A stretch of DNA of 64,000 nt from Methanomassiliicoccales archaeon (GTDB taxonomy: Archaea > Thermoplasmatota > Thermoplasmata > Methanomassiliicoccales > UBA472), in NCBI GenBank assembly GCA_028682895.1, contig JAJRAK010000029.1:7156-71155 (forward strand), given 5' to 3'. Made by a program: the position numbers and the translations under genes. The notes beneath the pieces were generated by a model, which saw only the letters and a program-made list of their open reading frames with translations, ran no database searches and was not told the origin of the DNA. Of this stretch, positions 7,201-25,421 are shown one piece after another (the stretch's first letter is position 1; every line of letters begins with the position of its first letter).

Positions 7201-7246
7201 ATAAAACGAAAGCTATGCTCAGCAATCTCTTAGAAATGCTCCTCAT
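1265..7246 (-). CDS. Giant (1993 aa) surface protein: signal peptide, long right-handed parallel beta-helix (PbH1/NosD-like) region, tandem Ig-like domains, CarboxypepD_reg-like domain, C-terminal TM anchor
   Basis: Uninterrupted 5.98-kb ORF. N-terminal signal-like LLSIAFVLFMAAIFISVGTSGTASA. Dozens of ~22-aa N-x-[IV]-x-x-N-x-C/I units. Repeated VDTTAP...W..SD..SG[IV]..Y...DG..W..V.G.SY....L.DG.Y...VRA.D.AGN modules. C-terminal IFIIVAIVIIVAMAGAAVVMMV followed by PRRVK. Confidence 0.9.
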   Translation of the reverse strand: MRSISKRLLSIAFVLFMAAIFISVGTSGTASATDAVKAPTLTTHSPIIIYNESQLVSMAASEGWSGDGSSSNPYSILAYDITASTYCIYIANTVSYVTISYCNLHGASSDGGIVLVNVQHVLIVNNNCNGNYYGIHMYGGSSNNTLSGNTVNENTYMGILVENSHYNQILSNTCTTGSYDSGIRITGSNHNIISGNTLTGHFHSILLEYSNNNTVSRNTCVSGYYNCILLSSSSYNDVSNNTCRSSNRNEDDYSGNGIQLESGSTFNTVSYNTCYSNIRGGILVWGSSNNTISYNTCYSDRNGIYILSSSNCTVVANTCNGNTNGINVGYSPNTTITGNTCNGNTNDCGIRSLSSSNLIVTNNVCNNDYFGIMLVSSNGGIVSNNVCITGSDSGIRLESSFSNIIDNNTCNNFISHGICLAYSGCENNRVTNNTCTGNTNGIHLYSSDSNYIANNDLVGNKDRGIYVVVSSDHNHFENNTCTTTNSGSSGIFVESSTNETITNNLCYSTVYGIFLNAVTESTVANNTCYGSMIGIYAYSSGDNLVSNNTCTENTQNGISLFSSCSSNVISENNCSDNDGIGISLASNCNFNTIINNTCIGNVNTDYGIYVGSSFNNTISGNTCNGDIDCSYSIYLYYSDDNVVMNNTCPNGQDGIWVYYSSRNVVSGNLLCNNSIGVSIDTGFNNIVTNNTLVNNSVGVQIFSSNSNTISNNLFYDSNVTGVNLLSSSYLNVTGNTLINSTDGIRAEYCHHIDIDDNTLNENANGTYLFSCNNIEVFENRIMYCYGTEAGYGVYLLDSSDCDIWNNTCEYNMRDICLDSTSGSTVTGNVCEGSWISIFIRSEGSTISQNNLVSNNSCTSSFCGIALFTNLNSTVVGNSCSNHNFGINITESSGINVTGNQIIYVNMGICFYQTNDSAISSNLIGLCGEGVKIEESHRNIINENMIAMADYGISLYDSNDTVVYGNSVNSSSDNGIYLNNSENNSINANSIYGSDGYGIYLNASTGNLLFGNELTSNNGAGVVYNSSAVQAYDDGDNRWNSTYGNLWSDRTYPDADHDGLVDVSYALDGGAGNADLRPIANASIGITSPATLAYTNISNITIRGEAADACITSIVWYNDANDESGSCIGTTTWTGNVSLMEGTNNITVTMTDALGRVLSDNVTVVYSTGITFSLTPADGSTFYTNQNTLDIYVNVSDYAPIGFERLRIMNCSLSSFMGIIFYTNYDGIIATIGLSTEGNGYFECTFVDMAGNSVHGIFYFIYDVTAPSLAIDAPANGYVNSTGSVMVTWTASDTLSGIDHYAVSSDGTTWTNVTGTEHMFSLADGNYTLFVRAYDRAGNFNETNVTVSVDTTAPVVVVSSPANDSYHGNGVVPVNWTVSDAIAGVSSVLIRFDNGTWVNVTDVTSYTNGTLSEGIHTIYFNATDALGNYIVTSMVIIIDLTDPTVYITSPANGTSLNPGTVLLSWEAEDIIGIANCSISVNGGEWVLVNGTSYLFTDLAEGNYTVRVRAYDNVGNFNITAISFIIDRTDPSVTITVPSDGSYDADSNVTITWTGSDDRCGVDHYWVSVDGVITSLPANATSYTFRGASDGTHIISVRAFDKAGNNEWMVITVIVDTTAPSVVITAPGNGSYLNDPAVTVTWTASDVTSGISHTEISMDGTTWTSVSGSSYALSTLADGTYTVQLRATDAVGNIGYGQATFVVDTIAPVLEVTPADGAHSNDVDLVVFWNTTDASGILYCSVSTDGVNWAVVNGTSYALNDLDDGNYTIYVRAYDLAGNFNEGIVHLIIDTVSPTIVAHSPMGSGAAVSSAIIAVFSEDMDASTILVTISGVDGAISGRGTTYSFIPASDLEYNSDYTVTMSGKDLAGNTVSLTWAFSTIDAGDVEGDLVDAYGRGLANVTITLSNGMTATTDEEGHFLFEDVPTGTYEMTAERDGYDMLSMNITVTAEETLALDEVEMDKTLNGGGDIFIIVAIVIIVAMAGAAVVMMVPRRVK
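1880..3475 (-). repeat. Six tandem ~265-280 bp coding repeats (Ig-like modules) inside the 1993-aa gene
   Basis: Each unit starts with a D-[VTL]-T-[AD]-P boundary (DVTAP, DTTAP, DLTDP, DRTDP, DTTAP, DTIAP, DTVSP) and carries the W..SD..SGI and VRAYD.AGN blocks. Coordinates are approximate. Confidence 0.75.
4150..6950 (-). repeat. Parallel beta-helix (PbH1-type) coding repeat region of the 1993-aa gene
   Basis: Continuous run of short degenerate units such as NNTCxxNxxGIxLxxSxxNxIxxN. Coordinates are approximate. Confidence 0.7.
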
Positions 7247-11709: not shown

Positions 11710-13818
11710 TCATTTGGCCAAGCCATCTTCATCCCTGAAATAGAACATGCCCTTAGGCACGGTCATAAGGAAACGCACACCACGACCTGGCTCACCATGC
11801 TCTTCTATCGATATCCCCGTGATCTGAAGTATTTCCTTGGTCAGGAACATGCCCTGGCCTGTGTTCCTGCCCATCCCCTGCTTGAACAGGTTCTTCTTGT
11901 CCTCGAATGATATCCCTTCCCCATCGTCCTCATAGACCATTTGGAGCGTCCCATCGTCCTTGGGCTCGTATCTTAGGGATATCGACTTGACGCGGCCACC
12001 GTGACGGAGGGAGTTCTCCAGCAGATTATAGAAGACCTTTTCCAGCATCGTGTCGGCGAATACGTTCAACGGCCGTTGTTCGGTCTTGATATCGATACCG
12101 GTGAGGTCCAATTGGATGGTGGCCCGTTCGAACACCGTACCGACGTTCTGCCATACGGGCGCCTTCACCCCCAATTGTTCGTAGTCCTTGGCGAACTCGA
12201 TCAGTTCCATTATGGATTGGGTGTTCTTCTCCAATTTCAGTAGAATCTTCGTTTGGCGCTCCTTGTCCTCGACCCCTTCCAGTAATTGTATGTAGCTCCC
12301 TACGACCGTGAACCTGTTCAACAGGTCGTGCCGGGTGATGCCGGAGATGAGGCTCAATTTCTTGTTAGCTGCTTTCAACGATTCGGCCATCTTTCGGTCG
12401 CTGATGTCCCTGATAAGTAGCAGCATGTAGTCCTGATCATCGACCGTGATAGGTATGGCCGCCAGATATGCCCAGATACTTTTATCGCCCTTACTTTTTA
12501 CGAGGGTCTCGAAATCATTCACCGCACCCTCGTCCACCAATCTGCTCGAAAGGACCTTTATGTCATCGAGAGTGACCAGGTGGTCTGTCACCTTGGTCTT
12601 GAGAAGCTGCTCGTGTTCGCCCTGCAGCAGCTTGTCCATCTCAGGGTTCAGATAGACGAACGAGCCGTCGTTCCGATCGATGAGCGCCAAGGGCAACGGT
12701 ATGTTGTCGAGGAGCGAACGATATCGCAAGGCCTTGTGTTGGATGGCCGTCTCCAGGTTCTTGTGGTCGGTGATGTCGCGCATGTACAGTAGCGTGCCCA
12801 TGCTCATGCCAGCCTTGTCCTTCATCGCTATCGTGTGCGCATCGAAGAACCTTCGGAATCCTTCCTTGCCCAATTCGATCTCGACCTTGCCGGGCGGTGC
12901 CTTCGAGAGCAGACCTATGAGCCCCGGTTCGGAGGCGAACAGGTCATTCGCAGATGCTCCATTGAACGCCTTGGCATCGATCCCGATCACCTCACAGGCG
13001 GCCCGGTTCGCGTCAAGAACCCGTCCGGAACCATCTATCAGGAAGGATGGATCAGGAGTGTTGTCCCAGACGACGCTCCTGGCGATCGGGGTGATGTCGA
13101 ACAGATGATATCGGAACATGGCGAACATCAGGATGACGCCCATGAAGATGAGCAGGACCGGGGCGAAGGACATTCCGGGCCCGGGAGTGATGCCGACCAT
13201 CAATGATGCATCGCCAATGAAGGGAAGGGCGATGCCAACCGCCACCATGATGTCCCGCCTGCGGTAAATTCCCTTGACCTGGCCCATGTGGCGGACGAGC
13301 AGCGCGGTGGACGCGATTATTGCCAAGTAGGAATAGATCGCGGTGGAATAGAATACAGGGCCGAACCCGTTCGTCAGTACCAAAGAGCCGTCGTTGGATG
13401 AGAATACATATTCTGTGAAGAACAGCTGATGATAGCCGTTCGTGATCAAGATGATCATATTGACGATGGGTAATATGAACACGCTGAGACAAAGTCTGTA
13501 GGTGGGCTTTCGGGACGGATCGATATAGAAAATGACCGTCAGCAGTGCCATCACCGGTATCAGGATACTGAACGAATATTGGACCAGTTGCAGAACGATC
13601 TTGGTCGATTCCTCTGTCGACAGCAATATCAACGAGCTTGAAAGGGACCATCCGGCACTGAGCACCATCAAGCCAATGAATGGTATGGCCGAATGGTTCG
13701 CCCGATAGCGCCAAGAGTATGTGGCCAGGAACAGCAGGATCAATGTCGCCATGATCATTACGGTCATGAATACTGTTGTATCGATCGTCGCAGTGAGATC
13801 GATCTGCGGGGTTGCCAT
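11710..13818 (-). CDS. Sensor histidine kinase: N-terminal ~7-TM domain, two PAS-like domains, H-box (ITRHDLLN), HATPase_c
   Basis: Multiple N-terminal TM helices. H-box SGITRHDLLNRF. N-box FYNLLENSLRHGG. G-boxes DDGEGI and GQGMFL. ATG 13818 sits ~27 nt downstream of the TATA-like ctcTTTATAC (13841-13850, minus strand). Confidence 0.85.
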   Translation of the reverse strand: MATPQIDLTATIDTTVFMTVMIMATLILLFLATYSWRYRANHSAIPFIGLMVLSAGWSLSSSLILLSTEESTKIVLQLVQYSFSILIPVMALLTVIFYIDPSRKPTYRLCLSVFILPIVNMIILITNGYHQLFFTEYVFSSNDGSLVLTNGFGPVFYSTAIYSYLAIIASTALLVRHMGQVKGIYRRRDIMVAVGIALPFIGDASLMVGITPGPGMSFAPVLLIFMGVILMFAMFRYHLFDITPIARSVVWDNTPDPSFLIDGSGRVLDANRAACEVIGIDAKAFNGASANDLFASEPGLIGLLSKAPPGKVEIELGKEGFRRFFDAHTIAMKDKAGMSMGTLLYMRDITDHKNLETAIQHKALRYRSLLDNIPLPLALIDRNDGSFVYLNPEMDKLLQGEHEQLLKTKVTDHLVTLDDIKVLSSRLVDEGAVNDFETLVKSKGDKSIWAYLAAIPITVDDQDYMLLLIRDISDRKMAESLKAANKKLSLISGITRHDLLNRFTVVGSYIQLLEGVEDKERQTKILLKLEKNTQSIMELIEFAKDYEQLGVKAPVWQNVGTVFERATIQLDLTGIDIKTEQRPLNVFADTMLEKVFYNLLENSLRHGGRVKSISLRYEPKDDGTLQMVYEDDGEGISFEDKKNLFKQGMGRNTGQGMFLTKEILQITGISIEEHGEPGRGVRFLMTVPKGMFYFRDEDGLAK

Positions 13819-13938
13819 TACCAATCTATTCGATTTTTGTGTATAAAGAGTGAACTACACGAACATTTGATTGGTACTATTATCCTGAACGTCCGACCGC
13901 ATCGCATTGAAATGATGGCCGGCCCCTCGTGCGGTTAA

Positions 13939-15666
13939 TTACATCACATACAGAGCTGGCCGGTCCATATCTGGCATACTTTGATCGTTCGTTGGGACAG
14001 CCCTGAAACGACCTTTGGGCACCAGTATCTTGAACGTTACCCCTTTCCCTTCCTTCCCTTCCTCGCTCACACGGATCCCGGTCATGTCCAATATCTCCCT
14101 TATCAGGAAGAAACCGTACATGTGGCTGCCTCCGAAGCTGTTATGGAAGAGCAATAGTTTCTCATGCGCGGGTATGCCGTTCCCGTCATCGGTATAGACC
14201 AGTAGCAGGTCATCCCCTACGTAGCGCTGTGTGAGGTCTATCCTGGTCACATGACCACCGTGGCTCAGGGAGTTCTCCAACAGATTGAAGAACACCTTGT
14301 CGAGCATGGGGTCCGCCAGTATCTCGACCTTCACGGCCGATCTCACCTCCACACCTAAGAGCCCGAACGATGCCGCCACCGATGAGAACGAATAATCGAC
14401 GTCCAGCCACCGCGGGTCCCTTTCCCCCAGCTCCTGATAGTCCTTCATGAAGGATATCTGAGCGTCCATGGCGTTGAGTATCTCCTTGAACTTGGAGAAA
14501 CGAACTTCGGGGATGGAAGATTCCTTTTCCATAATCGTCAAACACTCGCTCATCGCCATGACCTCATTGGCAAGGTCATAACGACTGATGCGGTTCATTA
14601 TGCTCATCTTCTTCAATGTTCTTGCCATTCGATTGGAGGCGTTCTTGATATCAGTGATGTCATGGATGATCATCACGTGACCTACCACCTGACCCTTCGT
14701 GTTCTTCATCTTGTTGACGCTCAGATTGAACGACCGGCCTGGGACCAGTTCCACGTCCGACATGGACGCGTTCATCGACTCGGACCCGTTCCCGAACAGA
14801 TGGGATGGTATCGTCGGTAGAAGCTCGTTCACCGGGACGCTCATGCGATCGTTGGCATTGACGCCCAACAGCGAGCTGGCGAAGGTGTTCATGTACATGG
14901 GTCGGTTCTGATCGTCCAATACCAGCATCCCGTCCTTTGACGACCTGACGACGGCGTCGATGGTGAAGGGCACCGCACGGAACATGTCATAGTACATGAT
15001 CCCGAGGAATATCACCAGACTGCTGACGAGTATGCTTGCGATGAATATTATCGTCTGAGGCAGGTCGTGCCAGAACGGCATCAGTAGAGACATTAATATG
15101 GTCGGCGCGAGGAGCGATATCAAAAGCACCTTGTGCTGAGCCTGCAAGACCTTGGCGGTGGTGATGTGACTTCTCCATATTATGCTGCAAGCTGCCACCA
15201 TCTCACCGATCATCAGAATTACGATCGGATAGAACAGGACGCCGTGCTCGGCATCGAAGGACCTCAGCGGATCATCGGCAAGGACCACGCTGGTGTATAC
15301 CAGTTCATGATAGGAGTTTGTCGCCATCGCTGCGAGGAGACCGAAAGAGACCAGTGTCAGCGCTAATACGATCTTGTTCACCAGGTTCTTGTCCATCCCT
15401 GTGAACTGCATCACGAACATCAGCGACAGCAGAGGGATGAAGAGATTGCCGAAGTATTCCAGGTTGTTCCAGATCAATTTGCCTTCGATCGTAGGAGAAT
15501 AGACATCAGACACGTAGCCCAGCATGAACAGGATCACGACCATCTGAATGATGGCATACGTATAGTGATAGGGTTGCCGACCTAGCCTCAGCACCATCAG
15601 TAGAAGGAATACGGAGAATACCGCGGTGGTACTGATGAAAAGGGCCAATATCGTATCGATGTCCAT
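13939..15666 (-). CDS. Sensor histidine kinase paralog (7-TM, PAS, HATPase_c) with Tyr in place of the phospho-acceptor His
   Basis: Same architecture as the neighbouring kinase. N-box FFNLLENSLSHGG and DDGNGIP are present. The H-box position reads ISRYDLAN, with a TAT codon at about 14578-14580. Confidence 0.85.
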   Translation of the reverse strand: MDIDTILALFISTTAVFSVFLLLMVLRLGRQPYHYTYAIIQMVVILFMLGYVSDVYSPTIEGKLIWNNLEYFGNLFIPLLSLMFVMQFTGMDKNLVNKIVLALTLVSFGLLAAMATNSYHELVYTSVVLADDPLRSFDAEHGVLFYPIVILMIGEMVAACSIIWRSHITTAKVLQAQHKVLLISLLAPTILMSLLMPFWHDLPQTIIFIASILVSSLVIFLGIMYYDMFRAVPFTIDAVVRSSKDGMLVLDDQNRPMYMNTFASSLLGVNANDRMSVPVNELLPTIPSHLFGNGSESMNASMSDVELVPGRSFNLSVNKMKNTKGQVVGHVMIIHDITDIKNASNRMARTLKKMSIMNRISRYDLANEVMAMSECLTIMEKESSIPEVRFSKFKEILNAMDAQISFMKDYQELGERDPRWLDVDYSFSSVAASFGLLGVEVRSAVKVEILADPMLDKVFFNLLENSLSHGGHVTRIDLTQRYVGDDLLLVYTDDGNGIPAHEKLLLFHNSFGGSHMYGFFLIREILDMTGIRVSEEGKEGKGVTFKILVPKGRFRAVPTNDQSMPDMDRPALYVM

Positions 15667-15950: not shown

Positions 15951-17249
15951 ATGTCCAAGAACGACCCGTTGGATCTCATGATAGAGGAGATAGCTCGCAT
16001 CCACAAGATCATGGGGCCTGACAAGGAAGGATACCGTCACGGAAGAAGGCTCATGCTCGACGCCGCCGACCAGCTGGACTACAACACCGGTTGGGCGCTC
16101 AGGACCATGCGCAAGGCGCGAAGGTCGTTCGAGGACGAGTGCCAGCTGATACGACGCTACAGCTCGTTCAAGAAGAAGTGGGCCCTCATGGACTCTTTCC
16201 ATTTCGGGGAGGAGGAAAAGGGACTGGAGCGTGAGCTGAACCGATTGCTTGGCAACGGCGATTTCGACGATTGCGAACCAGTGCTGGCAGATCTGGAGAG
16301 GTTGTTGGACCAGGACGTCTCGGACCATATCGAGATCGGGCTGCTGATGGAGGTCGCCGACCCGAACGTACAATTGGGAAAAGGGACGACCCTGACAATA
16401 ATGATGCACAACCACAGTGCCTTTCCCATACATGTGGACGCCCTGACCGGGCGCTCGGAACAGGCAACGATAAGCGTCCTCGATTTCTACAAGGGGGAGA
16501 TGCCATCGGCCAATGACCGCGGTTTCCAATTGAACGTCATACCAAAGGTCGAGGGCGACATCGCCGTAGAGGTAGAGACGACCATCGAGAACGATGGCCG
16601 CATGATTATCGTTCGCAAGTGCTTCTCGCTCAAGGTGTCATCCCCGCCGCAGGTGATGCAGGCGGTCCAGACCATCGCTCCTAATGATGTGCGGTACGCG
16701 AGACCGGCCTTCGCCATCCAGCCCCGCACCTCATCGTACGACCCATTGGAACTGGTGTCCTCAGGCACCGTGGACCAGTGGGCCGACTGCATAGAGGTCT
16801 TCGCCAGGGTGAGGACACCGATCGACCTGTCGGACATCGTGAAGAAGGAACCGGAGTTCATCAAGGCGGACGGGTACGCCAACCTGTTCAGATCATTGCT
16901 GGCGATGCCTTACGACCGTTCCATCGATTGGGACGTGTGGTTCAACCAGGCCGGTTTCGTAGGAGAGGACTTTACCAAGCGGTGCGCCAAGCTCCTGTTC
17001 CGCATGAGCTTCGATCGCTCGGTGGAACTGGAGATGGACGGCAGCGTGGGCAGCTCCAACATCGAGAATCTGATCGGGGCCATGCAGATCGCCTCCGGGG
17101 ACGTCAAAAGGGAGGAGCGGTCGCGCAAGTCGTGGAAGGTGGACGGTGAGATAGACGGGAACGCATTCTCGCTCACCGTAGAGAAGTCGGTAAGAAAGGA
17201 CGAGGCCGGGAAGGCCAGGGCGGCGATGTTCCGCATCGTCTCAGGCTGA
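15951..17249 (+). CDS. Hypothetical protein, 432 aa, no recognisable domain
   Basis: Long ORF with ordinary protein-like composition. Its 3' end overlaps the convergent 265-aa gene by 9 nt. Confidence 0.6.
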   Translation: MSKNDPLDLMIEEIARIHKIMGPDKEGYRHGRRLMLDAADQLDYNTGWALRTMRKARRSFEDECQLIRRYSSFKKKWALMDSFHFGEEEKGLERELNRLLGNGDFDDCEPVLADLERLLDQDVSDHIEIGLLMEVADPNVQLGKGTTLTIMMHNHSAFPIHVDALTGRSEQATISVLDFYKGEMPSANDRGFQLNVIPKVEGDIAVEVETTIENDGRMIIVRKCFSLKVSSPPQVMQAVQTIAPNDVRYARPAFAIQPRTSSYDPLELVSSGTVDQWADCIEVFARVRTPIDLSDIVKKEPEFIKADGYANLFRSLLAMPYDRSIDWDVWFNQAGFVGEDFTKRCAKLLFRMSFDRSVELEMDGSVGSSNIENLIGAMQIASGDVKREERSRKSWKVDGEIDGNAFSLTVEKSVRKDEAGKARAAMFRIVSG

Positions 17250-18038
17250 ATACATCCTGTCGATGATCTCTTTTGCCTTCTTCGAACTGCTGGCATCTCC
17301 CGTCGTCGAAGAGTCCACCAGTGAGCTTACCGCCCTCCAGCCCTTCTGAGGGACCGTTAGCGGCAACTTCGTCAGCACTAGGTTGCACTGCGTGTCCTGC
17401 AGGGACAGTGGCGGTTCGCTCAGGAATGCTATCGGCACGATGCCCAGATTTATGTCCAGGAACTTGGACAGCATGTACCCCAAACGTATCCTGTCCTTCT
17501 GCTCCGTGCCGCGGCAGGTGACCACGAACTTGATCTTCGGGTCCTTGGTGTAACCGTCGACGAGCCGGTTCAGGGTCGCCTTGGAGATGAGCGGCCTCAA
17601 TCCCTCTATCTCCTTCTCGAACGGGACCGGTTCCCATGATAGCTCCATTGGTGCCATCTCCCCGAGCGGGATGCCGTTGGCCTTCTCGTGCTCGTCTATC
17701 GCCCTTTCCACGTCCTGATATGAAAGGCCTTGCTCCAGGGCGCTGCGCGGGACGAGCAGCGTGTGCGTCAGTATCCCGCTCCTGCCCTTTTCGTCCAGCT
17801 TGCTGCGGCGGAATATCTTGGAGAAGTACACCCCTTCCGAACCTGAGGCGGAAGCAACGAGACGAGCCTCGCTGTTGTACATGTCCTCGGCGCTCACGTA
17901 GGCCGGGTCTATCGGGATGTAGTAGCCCAGGAACCTCTCGTACTCCTCGGGGTTGATGTTGGCGGACCTTGCCCGCTTAGCATAGCCCTTCTTCGGCACT
18001 GGACCGTAGATGAAATGCTCCACCTTGACGGTGCTCAT
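17241..18038 (-). CDS. Hypothetical protein, 265 aa, translationally coupled to the upstream GTPase gene
   Basis: The ATG at 18038-18036 overlaps the TGA of the 348-aa GTPase gene (ATGA). No domain I can name with confidence. Confidence 0.7.
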   Translation of the reverse strand: MSTVKVEHFIYGPVPKKGYAKRARSANINPEEYERFLGYYIPIDPAYVSAEDMYNSEARLVASASGSEGVYFSKIFRRSKLDEKGRSGILTHTLLVPRSALEQGLSYQDVERAIDEHEKANGIPLGEMAPMELSWEPVPFEKEIEGLRPLISKATLNRLVDGYTKDPKIKFVVTCRGTEQKDRIRLGYMLSKFLDINLGIVPIAFLSEPPLSLQDTQCNLVLTKLPLTVPQKGWRAVSSLVDSSTTGDASSSKKAKEIIDRMYSA

Positions 18039-19081
18039 CCCTTTACGCCCCTGAACTCCTGGTCCTCCTTGACCTCGTCAGGCATCTTATGGGCGATCTC
18101 CCGGAAGCGGTCGATGAAGCCCTTGTACTCATCGTAGGAATAATCGAGCTCGTGGCTGCCCTTCTCCGTCCTCAGACGGGGTATGACCTCCCCGTCCTCG
18201 TTCTGCTCGGTGTGTATCTCACTGAAGAAGTACGCGGACCTGTCGAAGGAGACGTTGGCGATCGCGGCACCCTTGGACAAGGCCATGGTGTCCTTGTAAT
18301 ACTTCATGAGGATCTCCTTGGCATAGTCCTCCTTGGTGAAGTCCGCCTTCTTCTTCAACATCGCGCGCAGGCCGCGCTCGTCGTTGCCAAGGTCGTCGAA
18401 CGTGTCAGGCCATCCGTTCGCCTTTATGATCTCCTTGTCCAGGAGGTCGAACTTGGTCAGCACGAATACGGGGTAGATCTTGGCCTTGTCCTCGTCCTTG
18501 TCATAGACCTGGGACTTGTACTTGGAAACGGCGGATATCAACGTGGCCATGAACACGTCGTAGTTGCGCATCTCGATGAAGCGCTCCGAACGGGCCTCGG
18601 CGTTGATCTTGCTCAGGTCGATGAGGAACACCAGGACGTTGCACTTCAAGAGCTCCTGGAACGACGTGCTCAACGAATCGAAGTTGAACTCACCCTTGTA
18701 CGTGCCGGTGGATATGGACTCGCGGTACTGCTCGATGGAGCGAAGGATGTCGAGGTCCTCACCGGCGATATCGTATACGGTGAAGTCCATTATATCGAAG
18801 CGGGAGGACGCCTTCTCTCCGACGGCGAAGAATCTGCGGTAGCCGTACTTGAACTTGTACTTGGCCATGTTGCCCTTCAGCGTGGCGTCGGCCCACTGCC
18901 CCTTCATGAGGTTGGTGCGGTGGTTGCCGAAGATGCTGGTGAAGGAGGGGTCCGTGGTGAAGCGGAACTCACCTGGACCGGAGTTCTCCCTTGAGTTGGT
19001 ATAGCGGACCTGTGACTCATACAAAAGACTGAGGAAGATCGTCTTCCCGCAGGATCTGTCCCCGAATATCGCGACCGGCAT
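18035..19081 (-). CDS. P-loop GTPase (TRAFAC/Ras-like motif set), 348 aa, unassigned family ('GTPase-A')
   Basis: G1 GDRSCGKT at residues 7-14, G3-like VYDIAGED, G4-like VLTKFDLL. A TATA-like box at 19105-19118 lies ~31 nt upstream of the ATG. Confidence 0.75.
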   Translation of the reverse strand: MPVAIFGDRSCGKTIFLSLLYESQVRYTNSRENSGPGEFRFTTDPSFTSIFGNHRTNLMKGQWADATLKGNMAKYKFKYGYRRFFAVGEKASSRFDIMDFTVYDIAGEDLDILRSIEQYRESISTGTYKGEFNFDSLSTSFQELLKCNVLVFLIDLSKINAEARSERFIEMRNYDVFMATLISAVSKYKSQVYDKDEDKAKIYPVFVLTKFDLLDKEIIKANGWPDTFDDLGNDERGLRAMLKKKADFTKEDYAKEILMKYYKDTMALSKGAAIANVSFDRSAYFFSEIHTEQNEDGEVIPRLRTEKGSHELDYSYDEYKGFIDRFREIAHKMPDEVKEDQEFRGVKG

Positions 19082-19104
19082 GATGATTGTGAGAGCCTGG
19101 CGGG

Positions 19105-19118
19105 AATAAATATATTTT
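19105..19118 (-). promoter_or_regulatory. TATA-like box for the GTPase-A / 265-aa operon
   Basis: The minus strand reads AAAATATATTTATT, centred ~31 nt upstream of ATG 19081. Confidence 0.4.
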
Positions 19119-19310
19119 CAATGTAACAGGTCGAATAGAAATGCTTGCGAAATGAGGTCGGTTCGGCATGCCAGCCCTCGAACTTCCATTGGGAATGTCC
19201 GTGTTTCATGCCATTCAGGCGGCACGGATGCATTGAATAACAAAAAACACATTAACCTCCCGAGACCGGTGTATCCTGGCCTCATAACAGGACGTTCGGG
19301 AACGATCTTC

Positions 19311-20141
19311 ATGGACCTTTTCGGCGGGAAGAGGACGGACAAGGCGCAGGAGTCTAAGCGCATCAAGGACATCCAGCAGTTGATCCGCGATGTCGCCGGG
19401 GATGTGGACGAAGAGCGCGTTGACGTCACCGAGGTCCATGAGATGATGAAGGCCAAGCAGGCGCAACAGACCGCCGAGACCAAGGAGGTCCAGGCCGCTC
19501 CAGCACCGACCCCGAGGACACAGCCTGCGATCGAACCGCGGAAGATCGAGCCGGCCCCAGGGAAAGAGAGCGTGACCGATGCCACCAGGACGAGCAAGGT
19601 CCCGGAAGAAAGTGGCCTAAAGCTTCCACCCAAGGGATACGTCGAGAGCGTCCCGGAAGAAAAGAGGAACGAACCCGTCCCGCCAGTGAAATTGGGGACT
19701 GCCCCTGAACTTAAGAAGGTGGAGCCGACCCTGGATGTCAAAAAGGTCGAGCCGGAGAAGCGGCGTTCCTATGAACCGGTCTTCTGCATCCATTGTGGCA
19801 CGAGGCTGGCCGAAGATGGTTCCGGATGCCCGAAGTGCCCGGTAAAAAGAGGGTCGGCAGGACCGCCGGTCAGCATGCCTCCGAGGCCTTCGCCTGTTCC
19901 TCAGCAACAGCCGAGGACCGTACCTATGGCTCCAGCACCGCAACGACCGGTGTTCTGCATATATTGCGGCACACGGTTGCCACAGGACGGTTCGGGATGC
20001 GCCAAATGCTTCAGCCAGAGATGGCGCAGATGCCAGAGCTGCGGTGCTTGGGTCAGGGCCACGGACATATCATGTCCGGTCTGTCACAGGGTCCTGTCTA
20101 TCGAGCCGGGAAGGAACGATGACCGTTATATGAGGCGTTGA
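19311..20141 (+). CDS. Triple zinc-ribbon protein with charged N-terminal helix and Pro-rich linker, 277 aa
   Basis: Three CxxC-x10-12-CxxC units: FCIHCGTRLAEDGSGCPKCP, FCIYCGTRLPQDGSGCAKCF and CQSCGAWVRATDISCPVCH. I chose the start at MDLFGGKR (ATG 19311); the longer ORF from 19152 would run into the divergent promoter. Confidence 0.65.
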   Translation: MDLFGGKRTDKAQESKRIKDIQQLIRDVAGDVDEERVDVTEVHEMMKAKQAQQTAETKEVQAAPAPTPRTQPAIEPRKIEPAPGKESVTDATRTSKVPEESGLKLPPKGYVESVPEEKRNEPVPPVKLGTAPELKKVEPTLDVKKVEPEKRRSYEPVFCIHCGTRLAEDGSGCPKCPVKRGSAGPPVSMPPRPSPVPQQQPRTVPMAPAPQRPVFCIYCGTRLPQDGSGCAKCFSQRWRRCQSCGAWVRATDISCPVCHRVLSIEPGRNDDRYMRR

Positions 20142-20147
20142 AGGATA

Positions 20148-21068
20148 TTATGATCTCGTCCTTCGGACCTTGGTGCCCGTCTGCCCTTCCGCCGTCCTTC
20201 TGATGACCTTGATCAGAGATCCGTATCCGCCGACGGCATAATCGATGCACACCTGACCCTTGTCGGTGACGGAGACTGGCACGAGATCACCTTCGCTCCC
20301 TTCGGTCCGCATCCCACTGACGATCACCTCGACCGTCCCCTTCATCCCTTTCGGCCGCTGTTCCTCGAGCACCTTGGCCACCTCAGGATAGTTTGCTCTC
20401 AGGAACTCGCCTGCGGTCTTTTGAACATCCTTATCAGCGATATCGATCCTGCCCACCAGGTCGAACTTGGTCAGAACGATCACCGGACAGGGGACGCATT
20501 TGCATGAACCATCCCTGATATCCCTGGCCTTGAGCCTCATCATGACACCGATGAGCGAGGCGTTGAGGGCATCCGCCTTTTGAAGGGACGACCGGTCGTC
20601 GCCCTTTCCTGCCTTCACCATGCTGGCATCGAGAAGAAGAACTACGATGGTGCCCCGGAGCGCGTCCAAGAGGTCCTCGCTGAGCGCCCCTGGGTCGAAA
20701 TGACCGCTGTCGGGGCCGGTCATCCCTTCCAAGGCCCTGGCATCCCTTTTTCCGACCTCGACCGCCTCGACGGTGACAGTACTGAACTCCTTGGATGGTA
20801 GCAGCCCGAGGAAGCGGCCTTTTCGAAAGCCGATGTCCATCGTACAATCGGCAATGCCCTGCTTCCGTTCGTTCGAAGGCCATCTTTTGGAAATAAGGTC
20901 AAGCCTGACGTCCCCCAGGCATTTGGCCGTACGAGGATCGCAGATGAAGCGGACCTCATCCTTCCCCTCGTTCCCTTTGGCAGTGGTCATTTGCACCAGC
21001 GTCTCATATAGAAGACCGAGGAAGACCGTCCTACCGCACCCTTCCACCCCGACGACCGTGACCTTCAT
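20148..21068 (-). CDS. Paralog of GTPase-A with degenerate catalytic motifs, 306 aa ('GTPase-B')
   Basis: N-terminus MKVTVVGVEGCGRTVFLGLLYE aligns to MPVAIFGDRSCGKTIFLSLLYE of GTPase-A, with Walker Lys replaced by Arg. VLTKFDLV is retained. There is no DxxG at the aligned G3 position. ATG 21068 lies ~29 nt from the TATA-like box at 21093-21102. Confidence 0.7.
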   Translation of the reverse strand: MKVTVVGVEGCGRTVFLGLLYETLVQMTTAKGNEGKDEVRFICDPRTAKCLGDVRLDLISKRWPSNERKQGIADCTMDIGFRKGRFLGLLPSKEFSTVTVEAVEVGKRDARALEGMTGPDSGHFDPGALSEDLLDALRGTIVVLLLDASMVKAGKGDDRSSLQKADALNASLIGVMMRLKARDIRDGSCKCVPCPVIVLTKFDLVGRIDIADKDVQKTAGEFLRANYPEVAKVLEEQRPKGMKGTVEVIVSGMRTEGSEGDLVPVSVTDKGQVCIDYAVGGYGSLIKVIRRTAEGQTGTKVRRTRS

Positions 21069-21092: not shown

Positions 21093-21102
21093 GTTTATAT
21101 GA
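21093..21102 (-). promoter_or_regulatory. TATA-like box for GTPase-B
   Basis: The minus strand reads TCATATAAAC, centred ~29 nt upstream of ATG 21068. This supports the internal start over the 358-aa ORF. Confidence 0.4.
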
Positions 21103-21332: not shown

Positions 21333-23243
21333 ATGAAGCTCCTTGGCAGAGTGCTCTCACAATATCTCATAATCGGCCTTGTTGTGATATTGATAATGAG
21401 CGCTGTGCTCTCTTCCATCCTAAGGGACCAGGAGATCGATGATATCTCAGATGATACCATGGAATCACTGGAGTCCATCGATTTCGCCCTGAGCACGTTC
21501 ATAGAGAGCGTGGAACAGGATGTATTGGGGCTATCGATGTACGAGGACGTCCTCACCCCTTACGATGACAACTTCACCAGTTTCCTGAACGCCACCGGGG
21601 CGAACTTCACCTATTCTGACGACCCGCTGGAGCTGAAGATCGTGGAGATCTTCAGATCCTTCCAGCAATCTCACCCTTACGTCAACTCCGTATACATGGG
21701 AAGGGAGAACGGGGCCTTCGTCAGGTCATACCCCCGGGCAGAGCCGACGCAATACGACCCCCGGAACAGACCATGGTATGAGATCGCGTTGGAGAACCCG
21801 GGCGAGATAGTGAGGACCGCCCCATATTCGTCCGTGACAACTGATGATGTGAACATCGGCATCGTCATCACCATATACGATACGAACGAGACCCTCCTTG
21901 GCGTGGTCGGATGCGATATCACCCTCGAGGAACTGACCGATTATGTCGTTTCCACCGGGGGGACCAACGACGGGAGCATGATACTCATAGATGGATCGGG
22001 GACCATCTTGGCATATGAGAACGAATCGTACCTGTTCGAGAATATCAGCGCTGTACTGGGCCTTTCGACGAAAGACATCCTGGATGCTGAGAACGGAAGC
22101 ATCCATGTGAACGATTCCTATCTGGTGTTCTACACCTCCCCACAGCTGGGATGGAAGCTCGGGAGCATGATCCCGTCGGTCGTCATAGAGGAGAAGATCA
22201 ACGACCAGGTGATGACCACGTTCTTGTTCGTCATACTGACGCTCGCCCTCATCAGCATCATCACCCTCATCCTGATCCATTACACCATCATCCGACCGCT
22301 GGGCGCCCTGACCGGTACGAGCGAGATGATCGCTGAGACGGGTGATCTGAGCAACAAGATAGAGGTCCATGGATCGGGGGAGATCGAGATACTGGGCCGG
22401 TCCTTCGCTTCGATGATGGAAAGGTTGAGCTCGGAGAAGGAAAAAAGGACCGAGGTGCTCAAAGAGCTGGAGCTCTATCGTGACCATCTGGAGGAGATCG
22501 TCGAGGTAAGAACGCACGAGCTGGAGAAGGCCAAGGAGGCGGCTGAGTCGGCCGACCACCTTAAATCGGCCTTCCTGGCCACCATGTCCCACGAGCTTCG
22601 CACCCCATTGAACTCGATCATCGGCTTCTCCGGCATCCTGTTACAGGAACTGGCCGGACCATTGAACGAAGAACAGAGGAGACAGCTCAGTATGGTGGAG
22701 GGAAGCTCCGAGCACCTCCTTGCGCTCATAAACGATGTGCTGGACATATCCAAGATCGAAGCGGGCCAGCTGACCATCTCCATGGCCCCGGTGAGCGTTC
22801 CCGATTCCATAGATAAGGTGGCGCGCACCATCCGTCCTTTGGCCGAGCGGAAGGGACTAAAGCTCGAGACCGTTGTAGATCGAAACATCAGCAATATCAA
22901 GGGAGACGGCCGCAGGGTGGAGCAGGTGCTCCTCAACCTGCTATCGAACGCTATCAAGTTCACCGACCAAGGCCGCGTCGGTGTGGAATGCGAGCAGGTG
23001 GGTGACGAGATCGTGATCAAGGTCAGCGACACCGGCATCGGCATCAGCAAAGAGGACCAGAACAAACTGTTCAAGCCGTTCAGCCAGGTGGAGTCGGGAT
23101 TGACCAGGCACTATGATGGTACTGGACTGGGACTGTCGATAACCAAAAAGCTCGTCGAGATGATGGATGGCAGGATAAGCATGGAGAGCGAACCGGGGAA
23201 GGGGAGCGTGTTCATCGTTACCTTCCCTGTCATAAGAACGTAA
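21333..23243 (+). CDS. Sensor histidine kinase (TM, dCache-like domain, TM, HAMP, HisKA, HATPase_c)
   Basis: Cache-like block [16 protein letters not shown]...RPWY...[12 protein letters not shown]-box [17 protein letters not shown]-box [13 protein letters not shown]-boxes DTGIGI and GTGLGLSI. Confidence 0.9.
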
Positions 23244-23298
23244 AAAATCAGCAAATGATTTATAAATATTACAAGGCATGATAATAATGGGGGTTGGG

Positions 23299-23694
23299 TC
23301 CGTGAACAAAACGAAGATACTGTACATAGAGGACAATGACCAAAACTTCTATCTGGTCCATTTCATCCTAAATGCCAATGGTTTTGATGTTCTCAGAGGT
23401 CGCGATGGCAAGGAAGGTATCGACCTGGCCACGACCATATCACCGGACGTGATATTGCTGGACATACAGTTACCGGTCATGGACGGATATGCTATCGCCC
23501 GCGAGCTGAGAAGACTTCCGGCGACGTCCGTCACACCGATCATTGCCCTCACCTCCTATGCTATGGCCGGGGACCGCGATAAGGCCATGGCCGCCGGATG
23601 CACTGGATACATAGAGAAGCCCATCAACCCGAAGACGTTCATCGACCAGATCAGCAGATACCTGTCATCGCACAATACGGGAGTTGACCGATGA
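23299..23694 (+). CDS. Single-domain response regulator (CheY-like receiver)
   Basis: KILYIEDND...VILLDIQLPVMDG...IIALTSYAM...GYIEKP. A GTG at 23299 lies ~30 nt downstream of TTTATAAATA (23259-23268). The ATG at 23278 is an alternative start. Confidence 0.85.
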   Translation, partial: SVNKTKILYIEDNDQNFYLVHFILNANGFDVLRGRDGKEGIDLATTISPDVILLDIQLPVMDGYAIARELRRLPATSVTPIIALTSYAMAGDRDKAMAAGCTGYIEKPINPKTFIDQISRYLSSHNTGVDR

Positions 23695-24830
23695 ACAATG
23701 CTCTCATCGTCGACGACAACGTACAGAACCTCTACATGCTGGACACGATCCTCAGATCGGCCGGTTACCATGTAGTGATGGCAAAGAACGGCGAAGAGGC
23801 GCTGGATGCTGCCAAGAAGAACCAGCTGGACCTCATCATCTCGGACATCCTGATGCCGGTCATGGACGGCTTCCAGTTCTGTCAAAGATGTAATGCCGAT
23901 GATTCGCTCCGGGACATCCCGTTCATTTTTTACACTGCGACGTACACGGACGAGAAGGACGAGAGGTTCGCCCTGGGCCTGGGAGCGGACAGGTTCCTGA
24001 TCAAACCGATGAAACCGGACCAGTTGCTCGCTGCTATCAAGGAGGTGCGGGAACGACCGCATAGCGAGAGCAAGAAGGTGGCCGAGAACGATCCCACCGT
24101 TCTCAGGGAATATGGCGATATACTGTTCCATAAACTGGAAAAGAAGGTCATGGAACTGGAGAAGGACATCGCCGAGCGCAAGGCGGCCGAGACGGCGTTG
24201 CGGGAGAGCGAGGAGCGCTTCAGGAAGGTCTTCGAGAGCGGTGCGGTCGGGATCGCCATCATCGATCTTTCTGGCAGAGTGACCCGCGCCAACGACGAGC
24301 TATGTGATATGCTGGGGTACGTGGATACCGAGCTGATAGGGATGGACCTGCTGGACATGGCCCATCTGGACCACCGCCAGGACCTTAAAGAGAGCAGCCA
24401 ACGGATGAGGGCGGGTGACATACCGGCATACACCATGCAGGCGCGCTTCATGCGGAAGGACGGTTCCATCGTCTGGTCCCTGCTGAAGGTGTCCATAATG
24501 AACGATGCCGAAGGCCATGCGCAATATTATCTCGCCTTCGCCAGCGATATCACCGAGTACAAGATAATGCGGGAAAGGGAAAGACAGGCCCTGTCCCAGA
24601 TAGAGAGGAACCTGGAACAGCTGGCCACATTGAACGATCAGATACGGAACCCGCTATCGATAATCGTAGCGTTGCTCGCCTGCGAGGAAAGACCTGATAC
24701 CAAACAGAAGATACTCGACGCCGTGCGTTCCATCGACGATATCGTACATGCGCTGGACATAGGATGGTCGGAATCGGCCAAGGTCCGTGAGTTCCTGGAA
24801 AAAAACCAACAGATCAACAGGAGACTGTAG
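23691..24830 (+). CDS. Response regulator receiver + PAS domain protein
   Basis: Receiver motifs ALIVDDN, LIISDILMPVMDG and FLIKP, then a coiled linker and a PAS block (FESGAVGIAIIDLSGRVTRAN...GY...). The ATG overlaps the upstream TGA (ATGA). The stop is TAG at 24828-24830. Confidence 0.85.
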   Translation: MNNALIVDDNVQNLYMLDTILRSAGYHVVMAKNGEEALDAAKKNQLDLIISDILMPVMDGFQFCQRCNADDSLRDIPFIFYTATYTDEKDERFALGLGADRFLIKPMKPDQLLAAIKEVRERPHSESKKVAENDPTVLREYGDILFHKLEKKVMELEKDIAERKAAETALRESEERFRKVFESGAVGIAIIDLSGRVTRANDELCDMLGYVDTELIGMDLLDMAHLDHRQDLKESSQRMRAGDIPAYTMQARFMRKDGSIVWSLLKVSIMNDAEGHAQYYLAFASDITEYKIMRERERQALSQIERNLEQLATLNDQIRNPLSIIVALLACEERPDTKQKILDAVRSIDDIVHALDIGWSESAKVREFLEKNQQINRRL

Positions 24831-25421
24831 ATGGCCAGGGTACTGTGCGTCGACGATAATGTGGAACTGATAGAGGTGCTCATGGAGATGCTGCGCACCT
24901 CCGGTCACGAACCATATCGAGCGCTGGGGGGAGAGGAATGCCTGGAACTTCTAAAGAACGGTAAGTGCACGCCTGACATCATCATGCTGGACCTGATGAT
25001 GCATCCAATGGATGGATGGTCCGTACTGAAGGCGATACGGGAAGATGACCGGTTCGACGCCATACCCGTGATCATCCTTACCGGAAAGTATCCCACCATG
25101 GCCGAGGTGGTCGAATACTGCACCATGTTCGAGGGCTACCTGATGAAGCCGTTCGCCATCGACAGGTTGATGGAAGAGATAGAGGGGGTGCTGCAAAAGG
25201 TGAGGACAAGGGAGGAGGTCATCCGCAGGGCGTCCCAGAAGGGCATGGACCAGAGCATGCTCGACGAGTACAGGAAACTATCCTCCACCGCCATCGTCCT
25301 GTCCCAGTTCGAGACGATAATCACCGACGGGACCTTCACTAGGAAGGTGTTCTCGGGAATGGAGAAGCGGTTGGACAATATCGAGGACTGGCTCACGCAG
25401 CTTGGGGTGCTGGTCCATTGA
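24831..25421 (+). CDS. Response regulator receiver protein with short C-terminal helical extension
   Basis: VLCVDDN, IIMLDLMMHPMDG, VIILTGK, GYLMKPF. The ATG immediately follows the upstream TAG, in the same frame. Confidence 0.8.
   Translation: MARVLCVDDNVELIEVLMEMLRTSGHEPYRALGGEECLELLKNGKCTPDIIMLDLMMHPMDGWSVLKAIREDDRFDAIPVIILTGKYPTMAEVVEYCTMFEGYLMKPFAIDRLMEEIEGVLQKVRTREEVIRRASQKGMDQSMLDEYRKLSSTAIVLSQFETIITDGTFTRKVFSGMEKRLDNIEDWLTQLGVLVH

Follow-up and report, generated by a model that had tools for sequence, protein, structure and literature searches.

DO-GTPases (double GTPases) are TRAFAC GTPases with a Walker B glutamate that were described, together with the GAP1 proteins encoded after them, as computationally predicted 'GTPase-centric' NTP-dependent conflict systems represented by the Pfam families PF19975, PF19993 and PF20013 (Kaur, Burroughs, Iyer, Aravind, eLife 2020, PMC7159879). 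Two paralogous GTPase copies are present in 38% of these systems, the GTPases are often fused to zinc ribbons, and the C-terminus of GAP1 carries variable effectors; the DO-GTPase–GAP1 pair was stated to have 'no close relatives elsewhere', and inactive GTPase copies are not mentioned (PMC7159879). The systems have so far been covered by this one computational survey, and no experimental study of DO-GTPases was found in our literature search. Here, we analysed a 64,000-nucleotide (nt) stretch of a Methanomassiliicoccales archaeon (hereafter the window; contig JAJRAK010000029.1, positions 7,156 to 71,155 of the forward strand), which encodes two GTPases (GTPase-A and GTPase-B), a partner protein of 265 amino acids (aa), a zinc-ribbon protein and a 432-aa protein.

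GTPase-A and GTPase-B are genuine paralogs and not a chance resemblance, with 26% identity in BLASTP over about 330 residues, essentially their whole length (E 2e-32). In our reading, to which we assign a probability of roughly 0.55, the module combines a switch GTPase that is active, a paralog that is a pseudo-GTPase and a regulator resembling GAP1, and is possibly a conflict system. Its first element, an active GTPase beside a degenerate paralog, was supported at the sequence, phylogenetic and linkage levels. The family to which A and B belong appears to be a divergent, archaea-restricted and previously unannotated branch of the DO-GTPase family.

Motifs and evolution of the two GTPases

An earlier note, made from the letters of the window, had described a canonical GTPase and a degenerate paralog. 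Both open reading frames (ORFs) and every motif quoted for them were recovered in the ORF list and the alignments, as follows:

18035..19081, minus strand: GTPase-A, 348 aa (ORF list)
19040-19063: GTPase-A G1, GDRSCGKT, aa 7-14
GTPase-A G2: Thr67, in ATLKG
18755-18775: GTPase-A G3, YDIAGED, with the Walker B Glu108, aa 103-109
18446-18457: GTPase-A G4, TKFD, aa 209-212
GTPase-A G5: Ser287
20148..21068, minus strand: GTPase-B, 306 aa, counted from MKVTVVG (ORF list)
21027-21050: GTPase-B G1, GVEGCGRT, aa 7-14; Arg13 codon AGG at 21032-21030
20742-20771: GTPase-B position aligned with G3, VEAVEVGKRD, aa 100-109; no DxxG
20460-20471: GTPase-B G4, TKFD, aa 200-203; kept

Across 35 diverse A-type sequences, Gly7, Gly12, Lys13, Asp104, Gly107, Glu108, Lys210 and Asp212 were invariant and Thr67 (G2) and Ser287 (G5) nearly so, which bears out the full motif set that had been ascribed to A. 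On these motifs, A is predicted to be an intact DO-GTPase-like enzyme with a full catalytic set. Its AlphaFold2 model (predicted local distance difference test, pLDDT, 81; predicted template modelling score, pTM, 0.83) comprised one G domain with inserts, namely about 90 aa between G1 and G3 and a beta-meander preceding the last helix, so that G5 is followed by the beta-meander and one helix. The best Foldseek matches of the model were G-alpha, MglA, SR-beta, atlastin and septin, all at E values of only about 1e-3. A is therefore regarded as a remote TRAFAC GTPase without a close solved relative, in agreement with the search of the GTPase alignment profile against PDB sequences, which returned only P-loop-level matches (ABC ATPases, OPA1 and MnmE).

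Neither A nor B of the window reached the Pfam gathering score for DO-GTPase1 (PF19975) or DO-GTPase2 (PF19993). At E values up to 1, DO-GTPase2 matched 34 of the 35 A-type members (best E 7.8e-9, most of them below threshold) and DO-GTPase1 matched 15 of the 35; among B-type members, DO-GTPase2 matched 9 of 13. When the A-type profile was aligned by hhalign with a protein scoring above the DO-GTPase1 threshold (28.8 bits), the probability was 96% and the E value 1.8e-9, with the alignment spanning G3 to the C-terminal LDYS..EY..FI motif.

In B, the Walker A lysine is replaced by arginine, and the G2 threonine, the G3 DxxG and the Walker B glutamate that follows it (DxxGE in A, VGKRD in B) are lost, so that its description as a degenerate paralog held. 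The G5 serine is kept, as is G4, and about 30 residues are deleted after G4 relative to A. B is thus a predicted pseudo-GTPase, lacking the residues for the beta- and gamma-phosphates, Mg2+ and catalysis and keeping the guanine-recognition motifs (G4 and G5).

This pattern of loss recurs in the wider family, which amounted to only 244 clusters in a search of 1.84 billion representative proteins. Motifs were tabulated for 137 near-full-length family representatives. G3 was present in 78 of these, and GK[ST] was kept in 77 of the 78; among the 59 without G3, GK[ST] was found in 15, G4 in 47 and the G5 serine in 50. The association between G3 and GK[ST] gave a Fisher p of 9e-22, a value that overstates independence because the sequences are phylogenetically related. 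At the Walker A lysine position, the G3-less members had K, R, L, S, T, G, A or Q, with arginine as the commonest replacement.

In a bootstrapped neighbour-joining tree, the Methanomassiliicoccales clade holding the window's B was supported (104/111), and it was the only such group, since wider groupings of G3-less paralogs were without support. The P-loop read G-R-T in 9/9 aligned proteins of this clade with an intact N-terminus; two further members had GKT and one had GTA. No member had DxxG or the G2 threonine, the T-K/R-x-D motif and the G5 serine were mostly kept, and 30 columns were invariant within the clade. The K-to-R, G3-less form, for which the earlier note had suggested a phylogeny, therefore constitutes a conserved clade.

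Substitution rates were calculated against the closest relative (locus L001) as the ratio of nonsynonymous to synonymous rates (dN/dS), and identities to the window's proteins were taken from more distant Methanomassiliicoccales genomes with B (L008-L012, L034 and L041):

GTPase-A: dN/dS 0.050, dN 0.013; identity 86-87%
Partner (265 aa): dN/dS 0.014, dN 0.005; identity 81-83%
432-aa protein: dN/dS 0.110, dN 0.040; identity 60-68%
Zinc-ribbon protein: identity 42-48% (three of those loci, passing the coverage filter)
GTPase-B: dN/dS 0.245, dN 0.116; identity 33-36% (positional orthologs)

The dN of B was about 9 times that of A. B is under purifying selection, yet far less constrained than A.

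Gene linkage, the core partner and accessory proteins

The earlier view of a GTPase pair left out the core partner, the zinc-ribbon gene and the 432-aa gene, which together with two TATA-like elements complete the locus:

15951..17249, plus strand: 432-aa protein; convergent with the partner gene, 3' ends overlapping by 9 nt
17241..18038, minus strand: partner protein, 265 aa; its ATG overlaps the stop codon of A (ATGA)
19104..19117, minus strand: A/T-rich TATA-like element AAAATATATTTATT; centre about 29 nt upstream of the ATG of A; read from sequence
19311..20141, plus strand: zinc-ribbon protein; ORF opens at 19152, likely start MDLFGG at 19311; Pfam DZR
21094..21100, minus strand: TATA-like element ATATAAA; centre about 29 nt upstream of the ATG of B (21068); read from sequence

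A and B had been noted as lying 1 kb apart on the same strand. Strand and distance are as described, but the gap (19082-20147, about 1 kb) is no spacer: it is occupied by the plus-strand double-zinc-ribbon gene, which is divergent from A and convergent with B. Since this gene lies between them on the opposite strand, A and B are separate transcription units. Both TATA-like elements are putative promoters; the one upstream of A sits inside a 230-bp region common to A and the divergent zinc-ribbon gene, and ATATAAA would support an independent promoter for B. The start of B was placed at 21068 because homologs begin with MKVS or MKVT and the spacing of the TATA-like element equals that upstream of A; a longer, TTG-initiated ORF (to 21224) was not supported on the same grounds. 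A minus-strand ORF of 207 aa in the gap (19118-19741) was rejected, as the plus-strand frame has the Pfam match and conserved CxxC motifs. In the closest relative, the equivalent ORF was chosen in a public gene call on the GTPase strand of the A-B gap (L001:7176-7742, 188 aa, no Pfam match); it runs antisense to the zinc-ribbon frame and probably represents a mis-call.

Gene contexts came from exact-protein look-ups, from scanning a single genome for each GTDB species and from a metagenome scan in which B was the seed, and all ORFs at the collected loci were scanned with hidden Markov models for each module component. The species scan covered 185,579 species genomes and gave 26 loci, all of them in Archaea; the metagenome scan gave 10 loci. 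The species scan used a narrow alignment, and the sample is biased to A-type sequences with GDRxxGK[ST] or YDIAGED. An A-type GTPase with a partner of about 265 aa directly downstream or adjacent formed a universal core, present at every locus with enough sequence, in Methanomassiliicoccales, other Thermoplasmata/Thermoplasmatota, Desulfurococcaceae and Thermosphaera, Bathyarchaeota and Nitrososphaerota.

In Methanomassiliicoccales, the order was B, the zinc-ribbon gene (opposite strand), A, the partner and the convergent 432-aa gene, and this full layout was found in 11/11 B loci extending far enough (the window, L001, L008-L012, L034, L036, L040 and L041). Sister Methanomassiliicoccales, whose A is 75-80% identical to that of the window, had the zinc-ribbon gene, A, the partner and the 432-aa gene; B was absent within 10 kb in L002/L015, L013, L014, L016 and L017. 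Among A-containing genome loci, a second, G3-less paralog was present in 14/25 and absent in 11/25. On whether the two GTPases occur independently, a point raised in the earlier note, the answer is thus different for each: A occurs without B, which partly counts against the note's reading, and B was never found without A (0/11 testable loci). B is accessory to A, never the reverse. In several other Thermoplasmatota, a G3-less paralog lay immediately beside A: the order was A, a G3-less paralog and the partner (L021 and L028); the partner, A and a G3-less paralog with 4-nt overlaps (L022, L023 and L025); or another G3-less paralog followed by A (L029, L031 and L032). The 4-nt overlap of the degenerate paralog with A implies co-translation.

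An apparent A-partner fusion (L017:10001-11839, a 612-aa ORF) was rejected, as the last 77 residues of A lie in another frame; the single ORF is probably a frameshift or an assembly error. At one locus (L005:495-8826), three GTPase paralogs in tandem come after a 1217-aa protein and before the partner. Of its paralogs, that of 315 aa has an intact P-loop and a degenerate G3 (YDIVREH), that of 340 aa is intact, and that of 539 aa carries, as a fusion, the C-terminal domain of the 432-aa family, in which the 1217-aa protein also ends. In the B-less locus L002 (11171-15795), the genes that come after the module encode a second zinc-ribbon protein, a Band_7 protein and a trio of Ser/Thr kinase, FHA protein and PP2C phosphatase. 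Association with a kinase and a phosphatase is one theme of GAP1-N2 systems (PMC7159879), and FHA proteins also partner TagF in type VI secretion. Beside the compact A and partner module of L004 (7001-8863), a more classical DO-GTPase-type operon was found (L004:9809-14065, minus strand). Its products are a protein of 322 aa that exceeds the DO-GTPase1 threshold of Pfam with 28.8 bits, one of 666 aa that matches GAP1-N2 weakly, one of 443 aa that matches DO-GTPase1 and DO-GTPase2, and a neighbour of 1213 aa; GSGKT and DxxGE are intact in both GTPases.

The partner protein has D82, R86, G126 and W234 as invariant residues and G18, Y19, P42, H92 and R183 as nearly invariant ones. It had no match in Pfam, NCBIfam, PADLOC, PHROG or PDB sequences; the only hits of its profile against PDB sequences were designed repeat proteins, which were judged spurious. 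Its AlphaFold2 model, built from a shallow alignment (pLDDT 71, pTM 0.77), showed an N-terminal beta-beta-alpha-beta-beta-beta-alpha (longin-like) domain followed by a C-terminal alpha/beta domain. At this confidence, the predicted order of secondary-structure elements would fit a longin domain plus an alpha/beta domain. The top Foldseek match was TagF of Acinetobacter baylyi (9t0n; E 5e-5, probability 1.0, 251 columns), followed by the longin domain of Lst4 (E 3e-3) and TagF of Pseudomonas aeruginosa; weaker matches were to the FLCN-FNIP2 entry (6ulg chain N) and to one chain each from SEAC and GATOR1. No statement of TagF as a longin- or DENN-like protein was found in the literature examined.

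Longin and DENN modules are standard eukaryotic platforms, GEFs (guanine nucleotide exchange factors) and GAPs (GTPase-activating proteins) for small GTPases (PMC3521125), and longins of the GAP type have a GP motif at the beta1-beta2 hairpin together with an arginine finger, which in SMCR8 are G68-P69 and R147 (PMC12290439). In the partner, residues 12-13, which lie in the predicted beta1-beta2 hairpin, read [GA]-P, and about 73 residues later comes the invariant R86, a spacing similar to that of the SMCR8 motif and arginine that we treat as a lead, by analogy.

The partner was also found fused to other domains. In a Nitrososphaerota genome, it carries a C-terminal TIR_2 domain (L027:11038-12258, E 4e-13); no other fusion of the module to a clear effector-type domain was found. 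In Thermoplasmata, it carries an N-terminal P-loop ATPase of the HerA/DUF87 type (L018:2474-4342, E 1e-16; L030:3489-5327, E 3e-14), and in L030 a second, G3-less GTPase comes after the fusion. Such effector-like fusions occurred at only a few distant loci.

The zinc-ribbon protein was the only one of the five module proteins with a match above threshold in Pfam, NCBIfam, PADLOC and PHROGs, namely Pfam DZR (E 1.9e-6; 28.4 bits against a cut-off of 27.3). In PADLOC-DB v2, A, B, the partner and the 432-aa protein had no match, and that of the zinc-ribbon protein was at chance level only. The zinc-ribbon protein combines a conserved helix at the N-terminus with a variable, Pro-rich linker and two to three C-terminal CxxC...CxxC ribbons, and the position and orientation of its gene are kept in Methanomassiliicoccales loci with or without B; a different zinc-ribbon protein occupies the same divergent position in Thermosphaera loci. 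In L001, a frameshift is suggested by the division of the frame between two ORFs of 199 and 83 aa. In the 432-aa protein, a helical N-terminus and a middle region, which may be a beta-sandwich, are joined by a variable linker to a conserved domain of about 170 aa at the C-terminus, and the gene has the same position in all Methanomassiliicoccales loci. No credible match was obtained when its family was scanned member by member against Pfam. In L005, it is residues of about 194-427 that are fused to the 539-aa GTPase paralog and of about 121-427 that are fused to the 1217-aa protein; the fusion of its C-terminal region to a GTPase paralog indicates a functional tie to the GTPases.

Signal-transduction genes lie on both sides of the module (window 11710-15666 and 21333-25421): three histidine kinases (two HisKA_7TM and one dCache/HAMP), a response-regulator/PAS protein and two more receiver-domain proteins. 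The complete set is common only to L001, with weak matches to some of its members in the more distant L008. Further away, a 1993-aa protein (window 1265-7246, minus strand), in which nine stretches of NosD/right-handed beta-helix precede numerous bacterial Ig-like domains and a CarboxypepD_reg domain, is probably a giant surface or adhesin-type protein. A 2370-aa ORF (window 38077-45189, minus strand), the sole Pfam match of which is a purple-acid-phosphatase N-terminal (FN3-like) domain, may be a second one and was perhaps horizontally acquired; its G+C content is 46-48% vs. about 56% elsewhere. At window 54731-57253, the plus strand encodes a type IA DNA topoisomerase of the ordinary kind, with Toprim, Topoisom_bac and two zinc ribbons. 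No tRNA genes were found within the whole window.

Working model and rival explanations

In the mechanism that we propose, the working core would be GTPase-A with its translationally coupled partner. A would cycle between GTP and GDP states, and the partner would bind it either as a regulator, for which an arginine-finger GAP is a candidate, or as an effector adaptor; by position, the partner would be the counterpart of GAP1, and its predicted fold and the invariant Arg86 would suit such a regulator or adaptor role. B would most likely pair with A as a heterodimer, or else compete for the interface of an A homodimer. In the resulting asymmetric dimer, the A site would turn over GTP and the B site would be permanently locked or empty, so that B could tune, sense or scaffold and only A would hydrolyse GTP. 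The fast evolution of B may reflect relaxed constraint or a sensing role, and the zinc-ribbon and 432-aa proteins would be lineage-specific accessories. The whole module would probably act as a nucleoside-triphosphate-gated switch of the conflict or defence type, a role that is favoured because of the TIR and HerA fusions, the adjacent DO-GTPase1-type operon in L004 and the patchy distribution. If the pairing of A and B is true, the module would offer a natural archaeal heterodimer of an active and a dead GTPase and a concrete hypothesis for the gating of DO-GTPases.

A number of observations weigh against this reading. For the family placement, A of the window scored 15.3 bits against Pfam DO-GTPase2, with a cut-off of 27, and B had no match. 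For the regulator, the partner model was built from 17 sequences at at least 61% identity and reached a TM-score of 0.44 with its best match; the hhalign probability with the GAP1-N2-like 666-aa protein of L004 was 14%, and Pfam GAP1-N2 matched 1 of 20 partner members (E 0.014), so that homology of the partner with GAP1-N2 is suggestive, too weak to claim. For the pairing, A and the partner stand without any B at 11 of the 25 A-containing loci, and in the window an opposite-strand gene divides A and B into separate transcription units. The arginine in place of the Walker A lysine may allow nucleotide binding, in which case 'inactive' would perhaps mean hydrolysis-dead and not nucleotide-free. 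For the conflict role, no effector domain was evident at the window's locus and PADLOC matched none of it, one flank shows synteny among Methanomassiliicoccales, and purifying selection on A and the partner is very strong; given the last two points, a housekeeping switch fits as well as defence.

Such a switch, working in polarity, at the membrane or with the cytoskeleton in the style of MglA/MglB, with the longin-like partner as GAP or GEF and B as a lineage-specific modulator, is the main alternative, possible but doubtful. It would account for the low dN/dS of A (0.050) and the partner (0.014), the partly syntenic flank and the absence of an effector or a PADLOC match at the locus. The two-gene operon of GTPase and regulator is like mglAB, MglA is among the best structural matches of A, and longin and roadblock domains are classic GTPase platforms (PMC3521125). 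A housekeeping role sits poorly, however, with a sparse and patchy occurrence (26 loci in 185,579 species genomes with the patterns used, 244 clusters overall), with the partner's fusions to TIR and HerA-like domains, with the DO-GTPase1-type operon alongside in L004, and with the fast evolution of B and the zinc-ribbon and 432-aa proteins.

The remaining alternatives concern B. That it acts independently of A, for example with the zinc-ribbon protein or unrelated partners, and is nearby only through local duplication, seems unlikely to us: its own promoter-like element, the opposite-strand gene, the many genomes in which A has no need of B and an evolutionary rate uncoupled from that of A are set against linkage at 11/11 loci despite an identity of B of about 34%, the 4-nt overlap of the degenerate paralog with A in other lineages and the presence of the zinc-ribbon gene with or without B. 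It is more improbable still that B is an active GTPase with non-canonical residues, in which Arg13 would stand in for the lysine and other acidic residues for the G3 aspartate. The kept TKFD and G5 serine might preserve the guanine pocket, arginine retains the positive charge, and Asp109, beside the lost G3, is kept. However, the Walker A lysine, the G2 threonine, the G3 aspartate and glycine and the Walker B glutamate, all invariant or nearly so in the A clade, have been lost together, and the varied replacements of the lysine in G3-less members (R, L, S, T, G, A and Q) point to relaxed constraint and not to new catalysis. A functionless, decaying duplicate, or incipient pseudogene, which loss of the catalytic motifs and fast evolution might suggest, has already been largely refuted and is hardly credible. 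The ORF is intact in all sampled genomes, 30 columns are invariant in the B clade, and the position is kept across species whose A differ by 13%; with a dN/dS of 0.245, which indicates purifying selection, and a conserved clade and position, B is not a decaying pseudogene.

Comparison with known systems

Rag heterodimers and the SRP/SR-type pairs had been put forward in the earlier note as precedents for an active/inactive pair; they turned out to be analogies only, and the nearest described systems are the DO-GTPases. The module is like the Rag-FLCN-FNIP, Lst7-Lst4 and GATOR1 systems in that two paralogous GTPases are proposed as an asymmetric pair and that the predicted N-terminal domain of the partner matches the Lst4 longin and, more weakly, FNIP2 and SEAC/GATOR1. 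However, both Rag subunits bind and hydrolyse nucleotide, whereas B lacks the G1 lysine, G2 and G3, and Rags dimerise via C-terminal roadblock domains, which are absent from the model of A. The Gtr1_RagA and roadblock models of Pfam gave no match, and no relationship to Rag was detected at the sequence level. With respect to SRP54 and FtsY, there was no SRP54 match in Pfam or NCBIfam and no NG domain of the SRP54 type, and the only SRP/SR chain among the sequence or fold matches was SR-beta, which is Arf-like.

MglA/MglB and SR-beta/SRX share with the module the two-gene arrangement of GTPase and regulator and the longin-type fold predicted for the partner, and MglA and SR-beta were among the best structural matches of A. 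A differs from these GTPases in its size (about 340 aa, with large inserts), in having Glu instead of Gln after G3 and in having TKxD instead of NKxD, and it was not detected by the Ras, Arf or MglA models of Pfam. For the partner, TagF (9t0n and 6iz8) was the best structural match across both domains, with an N-terminal alpha+beta and a C-terminal alpha/beta architecture as described for Acinetobacter baylyi TagF (bioRxiv 10.64898/2025.12.08.692957). TagF, however, binds Fha and Hcp and is not known as a GTPase regulator, its identity to the partner is 9% with no profile-level sequence match, and the TM-score is only 0.44 on a moderate-confidence model.

A bolder reading, which we think improbable, is that the partner is a true longin-type GAP, with Arg86 as an arginine finger beside the GP-like hairpin, that acts on a heterodimer of GTPase A and pseudo-GTPase B. 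The module would then be a non-Asgard prokaryotic counterpart, possibly a relative, of the Rag-FLCN/FNIP, GATOR1 and C9orf72-SMCR8 switch, and the GAP1 proteins of bacterial DO-GTPase conflict systems would be longin/DENN-like GTPase regulators. If the pairing of A and B is true, the module would offer a natural archaeal heterodimer of an active and a dead GTPase and a concrete hypothesis for the gating of DO-GTPases.

Pseudo-GTPases are catalytically dead members of GTPase families. B is like them in keeping the G-domain fold with G1, G2 and G3 mutated and in being kept by selection beside an active paralog; it differs as an archaeal case inside a DO-GTPase-like module.

Compared with the DO-GTPase/GAP1 systems, the window's module has in common the glutamate that follows the Walker B DxxG of A, two paralogous GTPase genes, a conserved non-GTPase partner gene directly downstream of A, zinc ribbons associated with the GTPase and, at some loci, a variable domain (TIR) fused to the C-terminus of the partner. 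It differs from them in that the family was, in this sample, confined to Archaea, whereas most of the described systems are bacterial; that the partner has 265 aa and two predicted domains, whereas GAP1 has three (GAP1-N1 or N2, -M and -C); that the zinc ribbons are on a separate, divergently transcribed protein and not fused to the GTPase; that no GASH or fn3 (FNIII) match was found in the five module proteins; and that one of the two GTPases is catalytically degenerate. New relative to the 2020 description are a second GTPase that is repeatedly a selected, fast-evolving predicted pseudo-GTPase keeping the guanine-recognition motifs, a partner with a predicted TagF/longin-like fold, of the class that eukaryotes use on Rag, Arf and Rab GTPases, and the occurrence of the module across Thermoplasmatota, Thermoproteota-type and Nitrososphaerota archaea. 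Because the archaeal branch is compact (about 340 plus 265 aa, with no fused extras), it constitutes a tractable minimal version of these systems for biochemistry and structure determination.

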